Source: a virus
Taxonomy: Duplodnaviria > Heunggongvirae > Uroviricota > Caudoviricetes
DNA length: 61,049 bases
Strand: one strand, 5' to 3'
Virus record (IMG/VR): IMGVR_UViG_3300043399_000700
Shown here: one piece after another, positions 18,450 to 47,384 of the stretch
Layout: each line of letters begins with the position of its first letter
Position numbering within the stretch: position 1 is the stretch's first letter
Program-made: the position numbers and the translations under genes
The notes under the pieces: model-generated
Seen by the model: the letters and a program-made list of their open reading frames with translations, nothing else
The model's database searches: none
What the model was told of the DNA's origin: nothing

Positions 18450-19466
18450 ATGGCAAATCTATTTAAAAAAGCACTAGTATTCACTGACATCCATTTTGGA
18501 CTCAAAAGCAATAGTCTTGTACACAACCAGGACTGTTCCCAATTTGTTGATTGGGCGATTCAAACTGCCAAAGAGCAGGGTTGCGAAACTGGATTCTTTC
18601 TTGGCGACTGGCATCACCATCGTGCAAGCATCAACTTACAAACTTTAGACTTTAGTTTACAAAGTTTAGAAAAACTAAGTGCAGCGTTTTCTCAGTTCTT
18701 TTTTATTCCAGGCAATCACGATTTATACTATCGCGACAAACGTGATATTCATGGTGCTGCTTGGGCCAAGCACTTGCCCAATATCCATGTGTGCAACGAT
18801 TGGTTCAACGAAAACGATGTAGTTATTGCTCCATGGTTATGTGGCGATGATCACAAACGTATTCACAAGATGAAGGGTCAGTATATCTTCGGCCACTTTG
18901 AGCTACCTCATTTTAAGATGAATGCTATGGTTGAAATGCCAGATCATGGCGAAATCCAAAGTGAGCACTTTTCAAACTTTGCTGAAGTATATTCTGGTCA
19001 CTTTCACATGCGTCAACACAAACGCAACATTAACTATATCGGCAATGCGTTTCCACATAACTTTGCTGATGCCGGCGATGACAACCGTGGCTGCATGATT
19101 TTGGAATGGGGCAAACCTCCTACATTCCATGCATGGCCAGGGCAACCTACATATCGTGTGTATGATCTAAGCCAGATTATTGATAACGGTGCTGCCTTGC
19201 TCAAACCAAATATGCATGTGCGTGTAGGACTTGACATTGAGATTTCCTACGAAGAAGCAAACTTTATTAAAGAAACATTTATTCGAGACTACAATCTTCG
19301 TGAAATGGCACTTATTCCTAACAAGAAAGGTGCACTCGAAGAAGATATGGCACCCGGAGAGGTTAAGTTCGAATCTGTTGATCAAATTGTAACTGACCAA
19401 ATTACTAAAATCGAATCTGAGTTTTATGATTCTAAACTATTGCTACAAATTTACCAGGCACTATGA
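18450..19466 (+). CDS. gp47: Recombination endonuclease subunit (gp47/SbcD/Mre11-like)
   Basis: Metallophosphoesterase motifs TDIHFG, GDWHH, GNHD, GHF, SGHFH. Confidence 0.9.
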   Translation: MANLFKKALVFTDIHFGLKSNSLVHNQDCSQFVDWAIQTAKEQGCETGFFLGDWHHHRASINLQTLDFSLQSLEKLSAAFSQFFFIPGNHDLYYRDKRDIHGAAWAKHLPNIHVCNDWFNENDVVIAPWLCGDDHKRIHKMKGQYIFGHFELPHFKMNAMVEMPDHGEIQSEHFSNFAEVYSGHFHMRQHKRNINYIGNAFPHNFADAGDDNRGCMILEWGKPPTFHAWPGQPTYRVYDLSQIIDNGAALLKPNMHVRVGLDIEISYEEANFIKETFIRDYNLREMALIPNKKGALEEDMAPGEVKFESVDQIVTDQITKIESEFYDSKLLLQIYQAL

Positions 19467-20548
19467 TTAGAAGTCTAGGATACTCAGAAGATCAAATCAA
19501 TCAGTTTGTCAAAGACCAAGGGTACAATGTACTTGGTGAAATTATGATCGCAACAGTTGATACTAACTGGCACCGACTGTTGGCTTCTTTAGGAAAAATA
19601 AAAAAATCTAGTTACAAAGCCAGCGAAAAATACATTGTTCATCATCAAGACACAGAATATTTCATCGGCAACGTTGCATTTACTATAGAAAACTTTAATC
19701 GAGTCATAAGAGCATTGAATATCGATCCGTGTCGTTTTGTAATCTTTACCAACCATTATGGCAGCACATACAAATGGCTGGAGTACTGCAATCACGAAAA
19801 AAATCAATTCATTGTGGTCGAATCTCCGTGGACCAATTATGTTCGCTGCGAGCAACCAACTAAGCCCATTGCAACAACTAACTGCAACTATCACTTTTCC
19901 TGCATTATGGGCAGAGCAAGAGCACACCGTGACAAGTTATCCCACTGGTTGTTAGAAAATCATCTTGATCAATTAAACCTAGTAGTTTACAATCGTTCCG
20001 ACGATGCACCGACACCCGAAGAAACATTTTCTCAAACAACAGATTCTATCGGCATTAATCACTTTAGTTACTTGTCGCCAATTCCATTTACTAGAATCAA
20101 CGAAGAATGGACTAACTATTCAAAACTTAAATCTAGTTTAATTCCTATAAAGAATTACGAGATTCCACCTTACCAGTTTAGTGATAAATTTGCTTCTCCG
20201 TGGTACGAATCTGTGCTGCTTGACTTAATTACAGAAACTGTGTTTAACTATCCGTATGCGTACATAAGCGAAAAGACTATAAGACCAATTGCTGTTGGGC
20301 GTCCGTTTGTTATAGTCGGTGCGCCGCAAACACTAGACTGGTTACGCAACATGGGCTTCAATACATTTGATCGTTGGTGGGACGAATCCTACGACCAATG
20401 TCAAGATCCAGACTCGAGGTTACAAAAAGTTTTTGCAACCATTGAGCATATTTGCTCAATTCCATTAGAGCAATGCCAACAGATGTTAGAAGAAATGGCT
20501 CCTGTGTTACTGCACAACCAAAAACGCTACGAAGAACTTGCATTTTGA
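19463..20548 (+). CDS. Putative glycosyltransferase-like protein (GT10-like C-terminus)
   Basis: C-terminal LITETVFNYPYAYISEKTIRPIAVGRPFVIVGAPQTLDWLRNMGF..FDRWWDESYD; paralogous to 43799-44866; ATGA overlap with gp47. Confidence 0.45.
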   Translation: MIRSLGYSEDQINQFVKDQGYNVLGEIMIATVDTNWHRLLASLGKIKKSSYKASEKYIVHHQDTEYFIGNVAFTIENFNRVIRALNIDPCRFVIFTNHYGSTYKWLEYCNHEKNQFIVVESPWTNYVRCEQPTKPIATTNCNYHFSCIMGRARAHRDKLSHWLLENHLDQLNLVVYNRSDDAPTPEETFSQTTDSIGINHFSYLSPIPFTRINEEWTNYSKLKSSLIPIKNYEIPPYQFSDKFASPWYESVLLDLITETVFNYPYAYISEKTIRPIAVGRPFVIVGAPQTLDWLRNMGFNTFDRWWDESYDQCQDPDSRLQKVFATIEHICSIPLEQCQQMLEEMAPVLLHNQKRYEELAF

Positions 20549-21379: not shown

Positions 21380-22555
21380 ATGTATTCAGTATATCAACAC
21401 TGGGATCCGCTAAATGTTTGTCTAGTAGGACGAACTTACCCACCAGAGTTTTACTCATGGATTAAGGACCCAGACACCAGATCTAGATTTGAAAAACTTG
21501 CCGAGGAAACCGAAGAAGATTACCAAAATCTAATCGGCCTACTGCAAAACAAATTCAATGTAAAAATACATCGACCAGAGTTTCCTGAAGATCTTTCTTC
21601 ACTGTACATCGGTAACAAATGGGTGCAACCACCTACTGCTCCTAGAGATTATTTTCTCATGATTCAAGATAAGTTTTGGGTTCCGCATGTTCCCAATGCT
21701 AGTCATGCATGGTCAGTATTCTATCGCCAAAACAAACAAAGTTGGTGGGATGACTTTATTCGCCCACAAGACTTTTATGCAGCAATGCCCGAATTTAAAA
21801 ATGAAATGGAAGAAAAATTCCAACAGTTTCAAATCAACGACCAAGCGCACCTAGATGCTAAGTTAAAATTCTACACACATGTATTTGACGACATTCGCGC
21901 ACAAAATAACGAGATTGTTTATACTGATTTAGACTTTATCAACGGATGCTTTGTAGGACGTTTAGGACAAGATTTATATTTTGCTACACAAACTTACCAC
22001 GATGACAAACAACTCATTTTGGATCAAGTTAACAAACTCTTCCCTGACACACGCAACCACGTAGTTAATTCAGGAGGACACGGAGATGCTGTGTATTGTC
22101 CAGTTACCCCAGGATTAATTATTAGTCTTAACGATGTACCAACCTACGCCGACACTTTCCCAGATTGGGAGGTTGTGTATTTGCCACCTAGTAACTATTC
22201 GCACATGCGAGAATTTGAAGTTTCAATGAAACGAAACAAGGGTCGCTGGTTCATGCCTGGGTTTGAACAAGATAACAACCTTATTCACATGGTAGATCAC
22301 TACTTCGATGAATGGGTTGGGCAAGTTAGTGAAACCGTTTTTGATGTTAACATTCTTATTGTTGATCCTAAAAACATTGTTGTTAGCACACACAACGACA
22401 AAGTCGAAGAAGCATGCGCACGACACGGAATCGAAGTTCACGTAAGTCCGTTTAGACACAAGTATTTCTGGGACTGCGGTATTCATTGTGTAACCAACGA
22501 TCTTTCTCGCACCGGAACCAAAGAAAACTTTTTCCCAAATCGCCGTCTTGGTTGA
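21380..22555 (+). CDS. Amidinotransferase-family protein (copy 1)
   Basis: WDPLNVCLVGR start; GHGD (H-x-D) and GIHCVT catalytic-Cys motifs of the Gly/inosamine-phosphate amidinotransferase fold. Confidence 0.8.
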   Translation: MYSVYQHWDPLNVCLVGRTYPPEFYSWIKDPDTRSRFEKLAEETEEDYQNLIGLLQNKFNVKIHRPEFPEDLSSLYIGNKWVQPPTAPRDYFLMIQDKFWVPHVPNASHAWSVFYRQNKQSWWDDFIRPQDFYAAMPEFKNEMEEKFQQFQINDQAHLDAKLKFYTHVFDDIRAQNNEIVYTDLDFINGCFVGRLGQDLYFATQTYHDDKQLILDQVNKLFPDTRNHVVNSGGHGDAVYCPVTPGLIISLNDVPTYADTFPDWEVVYLPPSNYSHMREFEVSMKRNKGRWFMPGFEQDNNLIHMVDHYFDEWVGQVSETVFDVNILIVDPKNIVVSTHNDKVEEACARHGIEVHVSPFRHKYFWDCGIHCVTNDLSRTGTKENFFPNRRLG

Positions 22556-26836: not shown

Positions 26837-27267
26837 GCACCAGCAGTAACAGCTAGCACAGGCTAATATCGTGTGCCCTATACCTGGATCACAGATCGCA
26901 GGGACGGAAGACTCTTCGCTGTAAAGAGCACTCAACTACTACCCGTGAGGATGAAGATCGCCAATGCCGCGATTTAGTTGTTTGAATAGGAATAAAAGGC
27001 TAAAAAGACGCTCAAGACGATTGAGCACGTTGTACAAGTATGATAGCGTATATTTGTATAACCGCCGTTGTAATAAGACGGGGATGGAGGTACCGGACAA
27101 CCGCCTCTGCTAAACACCCTAACGCTGTGTGACTATGCTACTCAGATGAAGTCAATCTTTGCCCAGTGCGGGCAAAGTGTGACCAATTAATCTAGATGAA
27201 GCATAAACGCTTCGCTTTAAAAATAAATGTTGTGAGCGTAAGCGAAACAACAGATCACGTAGTGATC
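26837..27267 (+). ncRNA. Candidate structured non-coding RNA or cis element (unidentified)
   Basis: 431-bp ORF-free gap between convergent operons with about ten stems, G-U-containing pairs on the + strand and a GUGA tetraloop. No known family recognised. Confidence 0.45.
27127..27201 (+). repeat. Bipartite direct repeat GTGTGAC-N10-AGATGAAG x2, 50-bp period
   Basis: Copies start at 27127 and 27177, with the CTTTGCCC/GGGCAAAG hairpin between them. Confidence 0.7.
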
Positions 27268-27600
27268 TTATATATTATCAGGCCAATCTCTAAATAATGC
27301 GTGTTGTATATCAGCAGCAACAAACTGATTAAATGATTTGTGTTTCTCTTCGAGTTCACCTTGCTGTGGTACTACTCGTTGGAATGCTTGTTCCATTTGT
27401 GCCATGTTGTTAAATTCCATGAGTATCATCCACTCTGGCATATCAGCAATACTACGGAATCCCATTTTGCAACGAGTAATTCTGTACGATACCATTTTGC
27501 CTTCTGATACTAAGTGATCAAAAAACTTCTTCATGTTGTTGACCCAGTCTAGATCAGAAATGTCGCCTTCTTTGTTTGCCCAAATTGTATAAATGTCCAT
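27268..27600 (-). CDS. Small dimeric alpha-beta-barrel-like protein (DUF6614/EthD-like)
   Basis: MDIYTIWAN...HLVSEGKMVSYRITRCKMGF...EWMILMEFNNMAQMEQAF pattern. Start placed at ATG 27600, 1 nt after the upstream stop. Confidence 0.5.
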   Translation of the reverse strand: MDIYTIWANKEGDISDLDWVNNMKKFFDHLVSEGKMVSYRITRCKMGFRSIADMPEWMILMEFNNMAQMEQAFQRVVPQQGELEEKHKSFNQFVAADIQHALFRDWPDNI

Positions 27601-27601
27601 G

Positions 27602-28729
27602 TTATCCTCTTTCTGGAAAATAGTCTTGCATTGTACCTTCTCGGTGTAAATCACTAGTTACGCAATGAATCCCGCCATCCCAAAAATAACGGTGCCTAAA
27701 TGGAACGACGTGCGGAGTAACGCCAAATCTTTCAAGTGCATCAAATACCTGTTTGTTGTAGTTAAACACCATGACATTCTTTGGGTCGATGATCAACATG
27801 TTTACGTCAAAAACTGTTTCTTCAACATACCCTGTCCAGTGTGATAACCACGATTCAACTGTGTTAATTACGTCATGATCGTTTTCGAATCCGGGTATCC
27901 ACCACTTGCCACCGTTTTTTGCTTTTAGTTTTATAAATTCTTCAATGCCTAGCCAACTTTGCCCGGGTAGATATACAACTTCCCAGCCTGGATAAGTGTC
28001 TGCATACGTTGGTACATCGTATAAACTTATAATCAAGCCGGGTGTAACTGGACAATATGTGCCATCACTGTGTCCGCCGGTGTTTACAACGTGATTTCTG
28101 TAGTCAGTGAATTCGTTGGTAACAATCGACAATCGTTTGTTTAAGTCTTGATTGTAGTTTTCAGTACCCCAATATAGATCCTTGCCAATTCTTGCACACT
28201 TTGCGGTGTCGGCAAACAATCTGCCAGAGTGTACAGTATTGCCGTTGGCTTTGATGTAATCGAGAATATGATCGTATTCGCTGCGATGAAGTTGTGTGTT
28301 GCCAAAATCGAATACTTCTTTACATTCTTTTTGTATTGCTGCTGGTAGTTGATTAAACTCTTCCCAACTGTTACAGTCTGGCCAGCTAGGATCTGCAATG
28401 TCAGTGTAAGATGTTCTTAAAAAGTTTGTAGAATAGTATTCGTAAAACGTTGTGCCAAACATTCCTGTGTAGTCACGAGGAGTCATTGGTGGTCGAACAT
28501 ACTGTCCGTTGACAAAAGTCTGTTTGGGTAACTCTGGTCGTAGTACTTCTACACCAAACTCGTGTAGTTTTTTAATAATGCCTTGAAAGTCTTCTTCGGT
28601 TTCAATGGCAATTTTTTCAAACAATGATCTAACGCTGGGTTTGTTAATCCATGAATAAAATTCAGGAGGGTAACTACGTCCAACGACGCAAACTTTTAAC
28701 GGATCCCAATGTTGATATACTGAAAACAT
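27602..28729 (-). CDS. Amidinotransferase-family protein (copy 2)
   Basis: MFSVYQHWDPLKVCVVGR...GHSDGTYCPVTPGLIISL...RHRYFWDGGIHCVT. Start 28729 via TAATG overlap. Confidence 0.8.
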   Translation of the reverse strand: MFSVYQHWDPLKVCVVGRSYPPEFYSWINKPSVRSLFEKIAIETEEDFQGIIKKLHEFGVEVLRPELPKQTFVNGQYVRPPMTPRDYTGMFGTTFYEYYSTNFLRTSYTDIADPSWPDCNSWEEFNQLPAAIQKECKEVFDFGNTQLHRSEYDHILDYIKANGNTVHSGRLFADTAKCARIGKDLYWGTENYNQDLNKRLSIVTNEFTDYRNHVVNTGGHSDGTYCPVTPGLIISLYDVPTYADTYPGWEVVYLPGQSWLGIEEFIKLKAKNGGKWWIPGFENDHDVINTVESWLSHWTGYVEETVFDVNMLIIDPKNVMVFNYNKQVFDALERFGVTPHVVPFRHRYFWDGGIHCVTSDLHREGTMQDYFPERG

Positions 28730-29172
28730 TACGTCATAGGACCGAGTAGTTCGAATCCGTCCATGTCTTGTTTGTATAGGTGTGCTTGTTCTAAATATAG
28801 ATATTTGAATCCACGTTCTTTGTATATTGCACATTCAGCTTTCATAGTTTCAATGCCTAGTCGTAGTCTAGGACGATGATAAGTCCAAGCAAACTGCGCA
28901 CACTCGGCGTTGTGCTCGTCGTAACGTTTAATTAAACTAAAAGCTACTAATTGCTCCTTGTCGTAATACCCAATGACGTCAGTCATTGGGTCTGTGTAGC
29001 GACTGTGAAACATGGGCATAACACTAGAAAAGTGTTTGTAGATACAATATGTGTGGTAAATGTTATCTAATTGATTAAAAACAGTATCTGAAAATTCAGT
29101 GATATAACGCCAATCAACGTTTATCTCATAGTTTGTTTTACTTAAATCAATTCTAGCAAACTGGTAACTCAT
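28729..29172 (-). CDS. ATE_C/Bpt-like aminoacyl-tRNA-dependent transferase (stand-alone GNAT-like domain)
   Basis: IYHTYCIYKH...M, GYYDKEQLVAFS, LRLG...ECAIYKERGFKYLYL...YK...FELL aligns by eye with ATE_C; no ATE_N domain. Start 29172 via ATGA overlap. Confidence 0.6.
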   Translation of the reverse strand: MSYQFARIDLSKTNYEINVDWRYITEFSDTVFNQLDNIYHTYCIYKHFSSVMPMFHSRYTDPMTDVIGYYDKEQLVAFSLIKRYDEHNAECAQFAWTYHRPRLRLGIETMKAECAIYKERGFKYLYLEQAHLYKQDMDGFELLGPMT

Positions 29173-29678
29173 TTGCGTGGATCCTTGCGATGTTGAAACA
29201 GCATTGTTAAGTAGTCTTCGGGCCATGCATCGTAAAATCCTTTGCGAGCCATAATTTCTGCCTTGGCATCTAAATCACTTAGACATTGCACAAGTGCTAG
29301 AGCATAGGTACCTTGATTCATTGATACTCCGTTGACAATTTCTGGATCGTCGGGGTGGTCTTCTAAAACTAAAATATCCTTGCTTAACAAAAATTCACGG
29401 TTAGCAAAATCTAATGCGTTAGAAAATGTTTTGTAATCCCAAGTCTCAGGATCGTAGGCTATAGCGATAACTTCTCGGTTACCTAGCCCTGTGCGCCAAA
29501 TGTCTAGCAAGTCACCGATTGGGTTTGTACCAATTCGAACTTCGTAGGTACCTTCCATTCGAGCTTTGCGAGCATAAGGACAAGGAGGCCAACCTCCTAA
29601 TGCTGGATGCGGAACTTCTACAAAGTTTGTGATCCAGTGTAAGATATCTGCTTCTAGTTGTTGCTGTGTAATATTCAT
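29169..29678 (-). CDS. DUF1415-like protein
   Basis: W..NFVE...CPYARKA and DHPD...NQG.Y motifs resemble the DUF1415 CPFA/FHP pattern. Confidence 0.5.
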   Translation of the reverse strand: MNITQQQLEADILHWITNFVEVPHPALGGWPPCPYARKARMEGTYEVRIGTNPIGDLLDIWRTGLGNREVIAIAYDPETWDYKTFSNALDFANREFLLSKDILVLEDHPDDPEIVNGVSMNQGTYALALVQCLSDLDAKAEIMARKGFYDAWPEDYLTMLFQHRKDPRK

Positions 29679-29908
29679 TAGAAATATGGTAATCCTGTTT
29701 TCTTAACAGTTTCTAAATTTTCTTTGATTAAATTGCCAATAACGGTGCGCTCGTTGTAACTTAGATTCATTGCTTCTTCGTAAGTTATGCCTCCACGCAT
29801 TGACCAACACATTCTTAATATGTCTGAGCGTATTGAAGTTATTTCTTTGTCGTAACCTGCAACAATCTTTTCAATACGCTCGGCGGTCGCTGTTAGGAGG
29901 CGGAACCG
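29678..29908 (-). CDS. Tail-chaperone 'T' segment (gp51-like), probably made as a -1 frameshift extension of the gp26-like gene
   Basis: 76-codon open -1 frame after the slippery site (RFRLLTATAERIEK...MRGGITYEEAMNLSYNER...LPYF); no in-frame ATG/GTG/TTG until residue 33. Confidence 0.6.
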   Translation of the reverse strand, partial: RFRLLTATAERIEKIVAGYDKEITSIRSDILRMCWSMRGGITYEEAMNLSYNERTVIGNLIKENLETVKKTGLPYF

Positions 29909-30729
29909 AAAAAATTTGTTACATTGAGTGTAAACGGTGTTTCGTATTCTTTTTGACAGCCTTGACATTGAATCTTAAGCGGTTTAAGTTCAGCAGCATC
30001 GCGAAGTTCAATAATACGATCACGCACTCGATTGAATAAATCTCGATCACAATTATTCATAAACTCGCGAATAAATTCTGTTTCTACAACATTTTCGTTG
30101 CCGGCACGTACTAATCCAATGCTATGTGCAATTGCATCAATAGTCATGCGACTTAGTTTTAAAAATGCTTCGTTGATTCGACGCATTTTTTCTTCTTCGC
30201 TTAGATCCGCTGTAGGCAACATTTCGATTAGCTTTTGATCTTCGTATTGCGCTAGCGAGTTAGCATTAATTTGATCGTATGTTAATGGCTTTAAGAAAAT
30301 TTCAATATCGCCTTGTTTAATTGATTCAGAGTAATTGCCTACTTGAATTTGCTCCATGACTAAACGAAGATCTAAACCAAACGAATTTTCGTGTTGACAG
30401 TAAGGGCAATCACTTTCGAAATCCATTTCGTGACCGAAACTAGCAATGCGGATAGCAATTAGTATTGCATCAATGTCAGTAGCTGGAATCTTCCAAGCAT
30501 CGCGAATGTTTGGAACGCAACTTTGGATTACACTAACGATAGCAGTACCGTTGAATAATGCATCTGCGGTACGATAAGTGATTTCGTCCATTGCAGTCAT
30601 TGGAAACACAGGTAGCTCGCGGTTCGGCGGCATGTCTAGTGTACCAGGTTCGTAGAAGTTACCGTTTGATGGTAACTTGATGTAAATTGCTGGTTGTCTA
30701 AAATACTTGCGTAAAGGGTTATTTTGCAT
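29893..30729 (-). CDS. gp26: Baseplate hub assembly / tail assembly chaperone (gp26-like)
   Basis: NPLRKYFRQPAIYIKLPSNG...PMTAMDEI...D.ILIAIRIASFG with two CxxC (CPYC, CQGC). Start 30729 with AGGA SD. Confidence 0.7.
   Translation of the reverse strand: MQNNPLRKYFRQPAIYIKLPSNGNFYEPGTLDMPPNRELPVFPMTAMDEITYRTADALFNGTAIVSVIQSCVPNIRDAWKIPATDIDAILIAIRIASFGHEMDFESDCPYCQHENSFGLDLRLVMEQIQVGNYSESIKQGDIEIFLKPLTYDQINANSLAQYEDQKLIEMLPTADLSEEEKMRRINEAFLKLSRMTIDAIAHSIGLVRAGNENVVETEFIREFMNNCDRDLFNRVRDRIIELRDAAELKPLKIQCQGCQKEYETPFTLNVTNFFGSAS
29908..29914 (-). other. Putative -1 slippery heptamer T TTT TTC
   Basis: Zero-frame codons AAT TTT TTC, four sense codons before the stop; the -1 frame is open to 29678. 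Confidence 0.6.
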
Positions 30730-30777
30730 GATTTTCCTGACCATAAATATGTTAAGAGTACTTATTCGGCGTATATT
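30730..30777. promoter_or_regulatory. Divergent late-promoter-like motifs (CATAAATA on +, AATAAGTA on -)
   Basis: 48-bp gap between the chaperone and tape-measure genes holds both motifs. Confidence 0.5.
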
Positions 30778-39193: not shown

Positions 39194-40288
39194 ATGCTAG
39201 ATGCTATTAAACCATTACTAGATAGCGGCTTGATCACAGAAGACGTAAGTCAAGAGCTAAATGAGGCTTGGGAATCTAAGTTAAATGAAGCTCGTGAACA
39301 AGTTCGTGCAGAACTACGTGAAGAGTTTGCACAACGCTATGAGCATGATAAAACAGTGATGGTGGAAGCCCTAGATCGCATGGTAACAGAAGGTCTTGCT
39401 GGCCAGTTAGAAGCAGTTGCAGCTGAAAAGAAGCAACTTGCCGAAGACCGTGTCAAGTTCCAGGTTAAGATGAAAGAAAATGCCCAGAAGTTTAACGACT
39501 TTATGGTTTCTAAATTAGCTGAAGAAATTGGCGAGCTACGCAAAGATCGCAAGGCACACAACGAATCAATCGACAAGCTCGAAAACTTTGTTGTTAAGGC
39601 TCTTGCTAGTGAAATCCGTGAGTTTGCAGAAGACAAGAAGGACATGGTAGCAACCAAGGTTCGTCTAGTTAAAGAAGCTCGTGGTCAACTAGAGGCTCTA
39701 AAGTCACGCTTCATCAAGGAGAGTGCCGCTAAAATGAGTCAATCTGTTAGCAAGCATCTAAAGGCTGAACTAAGCCAACTACATGAAGACATCAAAGTTG
39801 CTCGTGAGAACAATTTTGGTCGTCGTATCTTTGAAGCATTCGCAACAGAATTCAACGCTACTCACTTAAATGAGAACGCTGTAGTTCGTAGCCTAAAGGC
39901 AGCGATTGCACAAAAAGATCAGCAGTTAGCTGAAGCCATCACACTCGGTAAGAAGGCTAAGACCCTTATCGAAAACAAGGAACGCGAGATTCGTGTCATC
40001 AAAGAGTCAAACCTACGTCAGGCCACTCTAGATGAATTACTAGGCCCTCTAAATGATGAGAAGCGTAGTGTTATGTCGAATCTGCTCGAAAACGTTCAAA
40101 CAGCCCGCTTAAAGAACGCTTTCGAAAAATATCTACCAGCAGTTTTAGCTGAGGGTTCAACAAAAGCCAAAAAGGTAATTGCTGAATCACGCACTGAAGT
40201 TACTGGCGATAAATCTGCAAAAGTTGTTGAGACAGAAGATACTAGCGAAAGCAATGTTATCGACCTAAAACGACTAGCAGGGCTTTAA
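39194..40288 (+). CDS. gp22: Prohead scaffolding protein
   Basis: Coiled-coil, charged protein between protease and capsid genes; strong AAGGAG SD. Confidence 0.8.
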   Translation: MLDAIKPLLDSGLITEDVSQELNEAWESKLNEAREQVRAELREEFAQRYEHDKTVMVEALDRMVTEGLAGQLEAVAAEKKQLAEDRVKFQVKMKENAQKFNDFMVSKLAEEIGELRKDRKAHNESIDKLENFVVKALASEIREFAEDKKDMVATKVRLVKEARGQLEALKSRFIKESAAKMSQSVSKHLKAELSQLHEDIKVARENNFGRRIFEAFATEFNATHLNENAVVRSLKAAIAQKDQQLAEAITLGKKAKTLIENKEREIRVIKESNLRQATLDELLGPLNDEKRSVMSNLLENVQTARLKNAFEKYLPAVLAEGSTKAKKVIAESRTEVTGDKSAKVVETEDTSESNVIDLKRLAGL

Positions 40289-40310
40289 TTTAGTTTACTA
40301 AGGAGACATT

Positions 40311-41516
40311 ATGTCACAAGAATTATTAGAGAGCCGTTGGGGTGAGACCAAGGAAGCCCTCCTAGAAGGTTTACAAGGTGCTCGTCGCAACACAATGAGT
40401 GCTGTTTTAGAAAACACTCGTAAGTACCTAAAAGAATCATCAGCTGGTACAACAGTTGCAGGTAACATCGCAACTCTAAACCGCGTTATTCTTCCAGTTA
40501 TCCGTCGTGTAATGCCAACCGTTATTGCTAACGAACTAGTTGGTGTTCAGCCAATGACTGGTCCAGTTGGTCAGATCCACACATTACGTGTTCGCTACGC
40601 TTCAACAATGACTGACACATCAGCTGCTCAGACATCGGTTCAAGCAGGTGAAGAAGCCCTAAGCCCATTCAAGATTGCTCAGGCTTACTCATCAGGCGCT
40701 CGTGCTGCTGACAACGCTGCAACAACTCAAGATTACTACACTGGTGCTAACACCGCTGCCCTAGAAGGCAACGGCGGTCGTCAGATCAGCGTACAAATCC
40801 TAAAGCAAGCTGTTGAAGCTAAGTCACGTAAGCTACAAGCTCGTTGGACATTTGAAGCTGCTCAAGATGCTCAATCAATGCACGGTATTGACATCGAAGC
40901 AGAAATCATGGCTGCACTAGCACAAGAAATCACAGCTGAAATCGATCAAGAGATCCTTCTAAGCCTACGTACTCTTGCTAGCACAGAGTTCACATACAAC
41001 CAAGCTACAGTATCAGGTACTGCTACATTCGTTGGCGACGAACACGCTGCTCTAGCTGTTCTAGTTAACCGTGTTGCAAACCTAATTGCTCAGCGTACAC
41101 GTCGTGGCGCTGGTAACTGGGCTGTTGTATCACCAGCTTCATTAACAGTTCTACAATCAGCAACGACCTCAGCTTTCGCTCGTACAACAGAAGGCACATT
41201 TGAAGCTCCAACAAACACCAAGTTTGTTGGTACATTAAATGGCGCAATGCGTGTATTCTGTGATAGCTACGCTAACGACAGCATGCCTGTTCTAGTTGGC
41301 TACAAGGGTTCAAGCGAAACAGACGCAGCAGCGTTCTACTGCCCATATATTCCATTAATGAGCAGCGGCGTTGTTCTAGATCCATCAACATTCGAACCAG
41401 TCGTAAGCTTCATGACTCGTTACGGTTATGTTGAACTAACCAACACAGCTAGCAGCTTTGGTAACGCAGCCGATTACGTCGGTGAAATTGCCGTTTCGAA
41501 TCTATCATTTAGCTAA
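40311..41516 (+). CDS. gp23: Major capsid protein (gp23 family)
   Basis: PVIRRVMPTVIANELVGVQPMTGPVGQIHTLR; SRKLQARWTFEAAQD; FYCPYIPL; FMTRYG. Confidence 0.95.
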   Translation: MSQELLESRWGETKEALLEGLQGARRNTMSAVLENTRKYLKESSAGTTVAGNIATLNRVILPVIRRVMPTVIANELVGVQPMTGPVGQIHTLRVRYASTMTDTSAAQTSVQAGEEALSPFKIAQAYSSGARAADNAATTQDYYTGANTAALEGNGGRQISVQILKQAVEAKSRKLQARWTFEAAQDAQSMHGIDIEAEIMAALAQEITAEIDQEILLSLRTLASTEFTYNQATVSGTATFVGDEHAALAVLVNRVANLIAQRTRRGAGNWAVVSPASLTVLQSATTSAFARTTEGTFEAPTNTKFVGTLNGAMRVFCDSYANDSMPVLVGYKGSSETDAAAFYCPYIPLMSSGVVLDPSTFEPVVSFMTRYGYVELTNTASSFGNAADYVGEIAVSNLSFS

Positions 41517-43798: not shown

Positions 43799-44866
43799 AT
43801 GGAAAGTTTACACTGGCGTTATAATTTTGATCAAGCTCGTTTTGAACTTATTAACAACGATCCAAATCAACACTACGAACCACTATTAAAACGTGTATCT
43901 ATTCCTACATTAGTTATCGACATTAACTTAGTTACGTTGGAAAATTTCCGAGAGTACATAATCAATGTCCTAAACCAAGCATCAGTTAATTATATTAATT
44001 TTGAACAAGTAATTTTTGAGCACACGCAAGATCCAACTTATGATTATGATAGTAAATGTAATATTTTAAACGACCTGAGTCAGAGTCTGGGAATCAAGTT
44101 TTATTTTGCGCATGTTAGATTTGCAACAACAACTCACTCGCATCTTGAAGAATTAATATACCCTAATCAGATTATATTTCATCGACGCCGTGTTACTCCT
44201 TGTTGGACAGATGTAGTAGAAAAACGCTATAAATTTAGTTGTTTAAATAGAAATCCGTCGATTCATAGATTAATACTTTACACGTTGCTTAAACAACAAA
44301 ATTTGCTGGAACATTTTATATACACATTTTATGACAGGTGTCCATACAACGGATTTAAGTATGGTCCAACTCAATACGTAGATTTGTCTAAGTATGTTAA
44401 CACCGATTTTAAATCTTTATGCTTGTCAAACTTGGCAGATTTTCCTTTGTCTTGGGACAACGAACTTAACGGCGGCGGCAATGATCATACTATAGGTCAT
44501 GCTGCATTTCAAGATACGTGGTGTCATATTGTAACAGAAACCTCAATGACTATACCATATGCCAGCGAAAAAACTTGGAAGCCGATTGCTTCTGGACAAC
44601 TTTTTCTTATTGCAGCAGCACCGGGAATTTTAAAATGGTTAAAATCTCTAGGGTTTTACGTGTTTGATGTGTCTTACGATTCAGAACCAGATTTGTTTAA
44701 GCGTTTACAACTGATTGTAGAAATTGTTAAAAACAACGTTGATAACCCAGGCGAATGGTGGAATCAAAACAAAAAATATATTGAGCATAACTACTATCAA
44801 TTTCACAATGGAAATGTAGAGAAAAAGCTGCTCGAACCCATAATTGCTCAATTGAACCATAAATAA
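43799..44866 (+). CDS. Putative glycosyltransferase-like protein (GT10-like C-terminus)
   Basis: IVTETS...SEKTWKPIASGQLF...LKSLGF..FD.SYD; paralogue of 19463-20548. Start 43799, 5 nt after TATAAGTA. Confidence 0.45.
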   Translation: MESLHWRYNFDQARFELINNDPNQHYEPLLKRVSIPTLVIDINLVTLENFREYIINVLNQASVNYINFEQVIFEHTQDPTYDYDSKCNILNDLSQSLGIKFYFAHVRFATTTHSHLEELIYPNQIIFHRRRVTPCWTDVVEKRYKFSCLNRNPSIHRLILYTLLKQQNLLEHFIYTFYDRCPYNGFKYGPTQYVDLSKYVNTDFKSLCLSNLADFPLSWDNELNGGGNDHTIGHAAFQDTWCHIVTETSMTIPYASEKTWKPIASGQLFLIAAAPGILKWLKSLGFYVFDVSYDSEPDLFKRLQLIVEIVKNNVDNPGEWWNQNKKYIEHNYYQFHNGNVEKKLLEPIIAQLNHK

Positions 44867-47356: not shown

Positions 47357-47384
47357 CAGCCCTCTAAAAAATTAAGGTATATTT

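Follow-up and report, generated by a model that had tools for sequence, protein, structure and literature searches.

A cassette of four minus-strand genes, here called A to D, occupies positions 27268-29678 of a 61,049-nucleotide stretch of DNA (the window) from the IMG/VR virus record IMGVR_UViG_3300043399_000700, a member of the Caudoviricetes. Our analysis shows that the cassette represents a module that is real, widespread and uncharacterised. By analogy with bacterial antibiotic pathways to N-hydroxy-arginine compounds, above all the one for argolaphos, we propose that A to D may act as one enzyme module for arginine or guanidine chemistry, a reading to which we give an even chance of being right. 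The proposal builds on the observed gene structure, on the family and fold assignments of the four proteins and on their genomic linkage, which includes a fusion of C to D. The four genes are as follows.

Gene A, 29169-29678, minus strand, 169 amino acids (aa): putative small oxygenase of the heme-thiolate kind; sandwich fold resembling that of AglA/P422
Gene B, 28729-29172, minus strand, 147 aa: minimal ATE_C/Bpt-type GNAT, putative aminoacyl-tRNA-dependent transferase without ATE_N
Gene C, 27602-28729, minus strand, 375 aa: amidinotransferase of the AGAT/StrB1 type; an insert specific to the lineage spans about residues 92-171
Gene D, 27268-27600, minus strand, 110 aa: DUF6614 protein

These assignments of coordinates follow from the list of open reading frames (ORFs), the raw sequence and the translations. 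Coordinates include stop codons, and the start codons are those that give coupled junctions, which places the start of B 18 codons and that of C 35 codons inside the longest ORF. The stop of an upstream 96-aa ORF and the start of A share TAATG, A and B are joined by ATGA, B and C by TAATG, and 1 nt lies between C and D.

Linkage of the four genes across phages

Tight gene junctions are common in phage operons and are weak proof alone; conservation across genomes is the stronger evidence for the cassette. Among the IMG/VR loci found through C, 21 of 34 have A, B and D beside it, in the order A-B-C-D in 14 cases and A-C-B-D in seven (one with a second C). All 21 follow a baseplate-hub gene and the 96-aa gene and converge on gp46/47 genes. 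The cassette is coupled to the hub and 96-aa genes in every related locus, with the synteny hub, 96-aa gene, A preserved. At least one of the 13 remaining C loci sits on a contig that carries the cassette elsewhere (G006, order A-C-B-C'-D). More distant lineages have the orders C(-)B(+)A(-) and D(-)B(+)A(-); the arrangements D-C(-)/B(+)/A(-) and A/B/C-D fusion also occur.

The linkage could also be followed from B. The broad B alignment was too diverse for locus scans, and another one was used instead, which led to loci with the longer relatives of B (the long form, described below). At least 539 viral contigs encode long-form B, a diverse 80 of which were inspected with hidden Markov models (HMMs), a neighbouring C being counted within 7 kb. 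Gene A lies directly beside long-form B in 70 of these 80 loci, mostly in convergent and sometimes in the same orientation, and D adjoins it in 51, whereas C is found in only six. Because A and D adjoin B so often and C so rarely, the conserved core of the module is D-B-A, and C is a frequent addition. C is still tied to the module: it occurs inside the cassette in several orders, fused to D, and elsewhere in the genomes. All five large contigs examined with D-B-A and no adjacent C encode at least one amidinotransferase at another place.

In some phages DUF6614 is fused to the C-terminus of the amidinotransferase, giving a single protein of 489-515 aa. This fusion (P0399/P0398) is one open frame in three contigs originating from ENA, Logan and JGI. 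At L140:5376-6845 (plus strand; also in L141 and L142), its amidinotransferase part is 31% identical to C and its DUF6614 part 57% identical to D; around the fusion lie long-form B, A, a radical SAM gene of the SPASM type and another amidinotransferase.

The carriers are a clade of uncultured jumbo T4-like phages. Since all of them share this one broad clade and a conserved synteny (hub, 96-aa gene, A and, further on, gp46/47), the locus counts are not independent events, and the rearrangements and the C-D fusion are the informative part of the linkage evidence. In environmental viromes, the module proteins form thousands of clusters at 90% identity. We also noticed two contigs of 148 and 183 kb (L053 and L054; NZ_JBBAKG010000003.1 and NZ_JBBAKG010000001.1), probably of jumbo phages, in which A, a short B and D are adjacent with no C between them. 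They had been binned into a Haliscomenobacter metagenome-assembled genome (MAG), a possible lead to a host or habitat among freshwater Bacteroidota.

An earlier, first-pass annotation of this DNA had described a coupled four-gene cassette with exactly the junctions given above and had made co-occurrence of its genes in other genomes a test of its idea; the ORF list, sequence and translations bear out the junctions, and the 21 of 34 C loci and 70 of 80 long-form B loci show co-occurrence. Its core logic, an amino acid being attached first and an amidino group second, did not hold in that form, given how few of the 80 loci have C beside B and that the core is D-B-A.

Family and fold of the four proteins

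The AlphaFold model of B (predicted local distance difference test score, pLDDT, 89.8) has a GNAT fold. Its top match in Foldseek is KlAte1, and VIA-align gives Z-scores of 15.1 for VipF, 14.3 for L-PGS, 14.1 for FemX, 13.8 for MprF, 12.4 for Sbb17 and 11.4 for human ATE1. A search of 1.84 billion representative sequences with the B profile retrieved 163 proteins, many of them 224-268 aa long with E-values from 1e-30 to 1e-8. Seven of the ten long relatives that were scanned pass the Pfam ATE_C cut-off (25.5-33.8 bits). Across 25 aligned members of the family, 22 match ATE_C (E<=0.1), and the other GNAT families account for one member only, which matches Acetyltransf_6 (FemAB type); no acetyl-CoA GNAT family was matched. 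When aligned, the long forms display a Bpt-like C-terminal pattern, Y.Y.GPGYE..YKS...GFEWWTG, which B retains in the shortened form YLYLE...YK...GFELLG together with the invariant residues W96, Y98, P101, L105-G106, E113 and G121. The B profile has no meaningful match among PDB sequences. Judged from these profiles and motifs, B belongs, in minimal form, to a divergent ATE_C clade that is carried by phages and lacks ATE_N, and by analogy with its family we infer that aminoacyl-tRNA would be its donor.

The first-pass annotation had called A DUF1415-like, a candidate that we rejected: 14 members of the A family have no match to PF07209 at E<=1, and the phage record has none at E<=10. The AlphaFold model of A (pLDDT 94.8), compared by VIA-align with 48,161 representative chains, has a single match at Z>=5, the protein AglA of Streptomyces monomycini (9ub3; Z 7.4, root-mean-square deviation 3.8, 150 of 169 residues aligned), the runner-up being at Z 4.2. 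Foldseek likewise gives template-modelling scores of 0.53-0.54 to 9ub3 and 9ub5 and at most 0.31 for all other listed matches; no Foldseek match reaches E<=0.001. By its match to 9ub3, A has the sandwich fold, in which helices enclose a central sheet of four strands. AglA, the prototype heme enzyme of the YqcI/YcgG family, shows this same arrangement; its Cys44 binds the heme iron, and it N-hydroxylates the guanidine of AMPn-Arg (PMC12866846). A comparable residue may exist in A, which carries the motifs PPCPYAR and EDHP...E.V.GV.MN.G. All 14 sequences compared, the most distant at 29% identity, share the pair C33-P34, and R37, R40 and R164 are invariant as well; P32-C33-P34 precedes helix 2 immediately, and C33 lies roughly at the distance after helix 1 expected of a candidate heme ligand equivalent to Cys44 of AglA.

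A second thiolate-heme sandwich family is DUF6875 (PF21780), recently termed 'cytochrome P422', which has its ligand in an RxGxVCP motif (2025 preprint). A scores 17.4 bits against this profile over positions 3-42 of 178, below the 24.5-bit cut-off, and weak matches recur in 13 of 14 A-family members at residues 11-49 (best E 0.004). The corresponding motif of A, G-G-W-P-P-C-P, has C-P alone in common with that of P422, and none of the P422 substrate-binding motifs was found in A. Taken together, the model and these motifs make it rather probable that A is a small thiolate-heme oxygenase of the AglA/P422 sandwich superfamily. Annotated as hypothetical, A-like genes also occur alone in Puniceispirillum phage HMO-2011, Roseobacter phages and cyanomyophages; phrog_28122 matches A at 1e-13, and the PHROGs families of both A and C are function-unassigned.

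The family profile of C matches several amidinotransferases in the PDB over its full length: AGAT (2.1e-17), HsvA (7.9e-15), SxtG (2.4e-13) and StrB1 (1.8e-9). Single-sequence matches of C in Pfam and NCBIfam stay below the cut-offs, and the NCBIfam single-sequence scan of the cassette proteins gave nothing usable. H220-S-D222 and C356 (in GGIHC) are invariant in 18 sequences and align with the HID and FHC motifs of AGAT, whose residues we take to be His303/Asp305 and Cys407. The amidinotransferase family is expanded in these phages, with 3 to more than 5 paralogues per genome. One paralogue of C lies in the window at 21380-22552 (plus strand; 47% identical), between gp47-like (Metallophos) and gp46-like genes, preceded by genes for a 361-aa protein and a radical SAM protein. 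A third amidinotransferase of the same phage lies outside the window at G000:C1:68329-69357, and the related phage G006 (345 kb, 99% complete) encodes at least five.

Further repeats were noticed around these enzymes. The insert of C includes a two-Cys motif of about 45 aa, Y.DI.DPSWP.C.S..(D/E)F..LP..IQ.EC (about residues 104-145; window positions about 28300-28420), which is found again in a protein of the radical SAM type (38% identity, 1e-11) and, elsewhere in the genome, in one of 434 aa (G000:C1:27085-28173 and 39544-40848). This recurrence suggests a targeting or docking module shared by modification enzymes. A C-terminal stretch of some 110 aa in the 361-aa protein beside the paralogue is shared by seven or more other proteins that this phage encodes; copies lie in the window at 19463-20548 and 43799-44866 (both plus strand), with six more in the genome, and one of the other proteins is encoded just upstream of the third amidinotransferase. 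Genes of the fatty-acid desaturase family lie near amidinotransferase genes in two unrelated phage contexts (L028:8574-9320 and L042:35-739).

D matches Pfam DUF6614 (PF20319) with 79.2 bits (E 3.1e-22; cut-off 25), residues 1-109 covering positions 1-107 of the 116-position profile. It is the best-conserved member of the cassette, with a mean column identity of 85%. The D profile has no meaningful match among PDB sequences, and a profile search of genome contigs found D in phage-like contigs binned into MAGs and in no bacterial context. A role as an Fe-S ferredoxin was considered and rejected, D having a single conserved Cys. An anti-Druantia gene has been predicted as DUF6614 (preprint).

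In sum, the first-pass annotation is supported on the families of two proteins. It took B for a stand-alone ATE_C/Bpt-like domain rather than an ordinary acetyl-CoA GNAT, in agreement with the family profile, the 22 of 25 ATE_C matches and the fold, and it took C for a relative of the amidinotransferases, as the matches to AGAT, HsvA, SxtG and StrB1 indicate. It had named two outcomes that would speak against its idea, B being an ordinary acetyl-CoA GNAT or no GNAT at all, and a lack of co-occurrence in other genomes; what we found is an ATE_C-type GNAT and recurrent co-occurrence. The overall idea thus stands for the families of B and C and for co-occurrence; it fails for the identity of A, whose AglA/P422-type appearance changes the predicted chemistry, and for C as a constant partner of B.

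A candidate pathway and its alternatives

In the biosynthesis of argolaphos, AglC requires ArgRS, tRNA, ATP and Arg to attach Arg to aminomethylphosphonate, and the resulting AMPn-Arg is then N-hydroxylated by AglA; the ligases of that cluster are GNAT-type aminoacyl-tRNA ligases. The phage pairs a GNAT of the arginyl-transferase family with an AglA-like protein, to which many genomes add an enzyme known for no other chemistry than making guanidines from arginine. It is because this follows the argolaphos logic that we propose a single pathway. In such a pathway, B would move an amino acid, possibly arginine by family analogy, from aminoacyl-tRNA to a primary amine of an acceptor. C would transfer an amidino group from arginine to an amine, making or extending a guanidino substrate, and A, as a predicted heme-binding enzyme, would oxidise the product, most likely by N-hydroxylating the guanidino group. 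D could work with C and B in an accessory or catalytic role. The order of the steps, the amino acid moved, the use of tRNA and the acceptor, be it a small molecule, an amino sugar or glycan, or the N-terminus of a protein, are the parts that we infer. Given that C-like and distant B-like genes of other phages sit in sugar-nucleotide and glycosyltransferase clusters and that the cassette always adjoins baseplate genes, a glycan, a virion protein or a host protein is no less likely to be the acceptor than a free metabolite.

Several observations weigh against this proposal. B itself scores 16.9 bits (E 0.0099) against Pfam ATE_C (PF04377), below the 25-bit gathering cut-off, and no ATE_N domain was found in B, which starts at the GNAT domain, or in its relatives of 225-268 aa. 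Acetyl-CoA GNATs such as VipF fit the model of B as well as tRNA-dependent ones do. Because they score equally high, the GNAT fold alone does not decide the donor, and it is sequence that points to aminoacyl-tRNA. In C, the position aligned with the residue that we take to be the triad Asp of AGAT (Asp254) is Asp in the window protein; in relatives it is Asn, Pro, Gln or Thr, the alignment being uncertain there. The rarity of C within 7 kb of long-form B and the restriction of all carriers to one clade count in the same direction. Neither a DNA search with the cassette nor tblastn searches with B, long-form B and D found a match among 50,697 phage records, and no cultured phage carries B or D. 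A and AglA are only 8% identical at their Z of 7.4, no PDB chain, AglA included, was matched by the A profile, and the YqcI/YcgG HMM (PF08892) has no match at E<=10 anywhere in the phage record. Because the HMM tests fail for both named families, we file A in neither: by sequence, it is not assignable to PF08892 or PF21780. No redox partner for A was identified, and the characterised P422 enzymes act on tryptophan, not on guanidines (2025 preprint).

One alternative is that the cassette modifies proteins, B acting in the manner of Ate1/Bpt on the N-terminus of a baseplate or tail protein, or of a host protein destined for N-degron decay, while A, C and D modify or supply the residue. By the definition of their family, ATE_C enzymes act as transferases on protein N-termini, baseplate-hub genes always precede the cassette, and the phage supplies 32 tRNAs, three of them tRNA-Arg. 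We nevertheless consider this unlikely, as B is without the ATE_N half, amidinotransferases and AglA-type enzymes are known from small-molecule pathways, and there is no evident acceptor protein; the synteny with the hub may simply be inherited gene order. We think it improbable, too, that the product is a glycan decoration, an aminoacylated or guanidino amino sugar placed by phage glycosyltransferases on the virion or on the host envelope. Such a role would account for the solitary C-like genes of other phages, which sit among sugar-nucleotide enzymes: an epimerase/dehydratase, a DegT aminotransferase, a glycosyltransferase and a methyltransferase in L026, UDP-glucose dehydrogenase in L028, and KdsA/KdsB with a glycosyltransferase in S-SCSM2R. 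It would also suit a distant relative of B encoded between epimerase and GT10/GT25 genes, and StrB1, an inosamine-phosphate amidinotransferase, is among the matches of C. These contexts belong to distant relatives, however, and sugar-nucleotide enzymes are neither inside nor beside the cassette. A glycan product is, moreover, compatible with the arginine/guanidine pathway and does not exclude it.

The four genes could finally share no pathway at all, being unrelated accessory genes held together by inherited synteny in a hyperplastic region, with B an ordinary acyl-CoA GNAT. All carriers in one clade with the same flanks, a window B below the Pfam cut-off, and the absence of C near most D-B-A loci would fit this. 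We regard it as very improbable, since the genes stay adjacent through inversions, changes of order and duplication, some phages have C and D as a single fused gene, ATE_C and no acetyl-CoA GNAT family is matched within the B family, and D, at 85%, is better conserved than the core gene gp46.

To return to the arginine/guanidine module, it might put an arginyl or N-hydroxyguanidino group on a macromolecule (the N-terminus of a virion protein, a glycan or DNA), an extension that we hold to be doubtful. If true, such tagging would be a new class of viral covalent modification that could aid host recognition or defence evasion, and DUF6614 would be a previously unrecognised fourth enzyme of the modification. 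Aminoacyl-tRNA-dependent transferases that work outside translation are rare. In the literature we found no described phage system with such a transferase, nor any in which such an enzyme is combined with a heme enzyme of the AglA/P422 type or with an amidinotransferase. Should the general prediction be true, it would provide functions for DUF6614 and for a new branch of thiolate-heme enzymes, add a minimal ATE-type transferase of 147 aa to enzymology, and point to an unrecognised guanidino or N-hydroxyguanidino metabolite or modification in infection by abundant freshwater and marine jumbo phages.

Genomic setting and comparison with known systems

The cassette is framed by the following features.

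Baseplate-hub gene (283 aa) and 96-aa gene, 29678-30744, minus strand: upstream of the cassette; the 96-aa ORF is 29678-29968
Hairpin AGATCACTACGTGATCT, 27252-27268, minus strand: perfect 7-bp palindrome abutting the stop of D, found in a scan for terminator-like structures

The hub gene matches Pfam T4_baseplate (7.6e-17) and the baseplate-hub family phrog_150 (4e-18). The hairpin is followed by a weak T-run and possibly marks the end of the operon; it sits at the edge of a structured non-coding gap of 431 bp that separates convergent operons. The first-pass annotation had predicted late expression and a tail chaperone as the upstream gene. No copy of the late-promoter motif TATAAATA lies near the cassette, the sole copy in the window being at 47380, and sigma-70-like sites are rarer in the cassette region than in shuffled sequence. 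The whole virus record measures 192 kb at an estimated completeness of about 55%, and the virus is therefore a jumbo phage. Its gp46-like protein is 51% identical to the counterpart in Pseudomonas phage PA5oct. The tRNA set, covering nearly all amino acids, and a transfer-messenger RNA (tmRNA) with the tag ANDEVYALAA are encoded outside the window (G000:C1:26251-51106); 32 tRNAs and a tmRNA are compatible with the pathway model without being specific to it.

Each of three phage proteins can be set beside a known family. Like Ate1 and Bpt, which consist of ATE_N and ATE_C, B and its long phage relatives have a GNAT fold and the ATE_C signature W.Y..P..LG ... E ... G..Y.YLG ... YK ... GFE; unlike them, B measures only 147 aa, lacks ATE_N and the Cys-rich region, and falls below the Pfam cut-off in its window copy. 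C keeps the catalytic Cys (GG.HC) and the His-x-Asp of the AGAT/HsvA/SxtG/StrB1 family, which its profile matches over the whole length, and differs by a phage-specific insert whose two-Cys motif is common to other enzymes of the phage. Cytochrome P422 is a small alpha/beta sandwich with an N-terminal Cys-Pro ligand motif, and in A an invariant PCP occupies the corresponding relative position. The matches of A, however, cover only the start of the HMM and stay below its cut-off, and the substrates of P422 are tryptophan derivatives.

The closest parallel for the module as a whole is the argolaphos system of Streptomyces monomycini (AglC/AglD and AglA). It joins an aminoacyl-tRNA-dependent ligase of GNAT fold to a small thiolate-heme 'sandwich' enzyme whose substrate is a guanidine, a pairing that the phage module would repeat. 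Their parts differ. The argolaphos ligases are FemAB-like (pfam13480) and about 340 aa long, whereas the phage B is of the ATE_C type; AglA has about 245-275 aa and belongs to PF08892, whereas the phage A has 169 aa and no match to that family. The argolaphos system is not known to include an amidinotransferase or a DUF6614 protein, both of which are present in the phage module, and it is an actinomycete phosphonate gene cluster, in contrast to the structural operon that holds the phage genes. On the evidence of their sequences, the phages thus appear to follow a pathway logic known from actinomycetes with parts drawn from different or very divergent families: an ATE_C transferase, and an oxygenase candidate that belongs to neither PF08892 nor PF21780.

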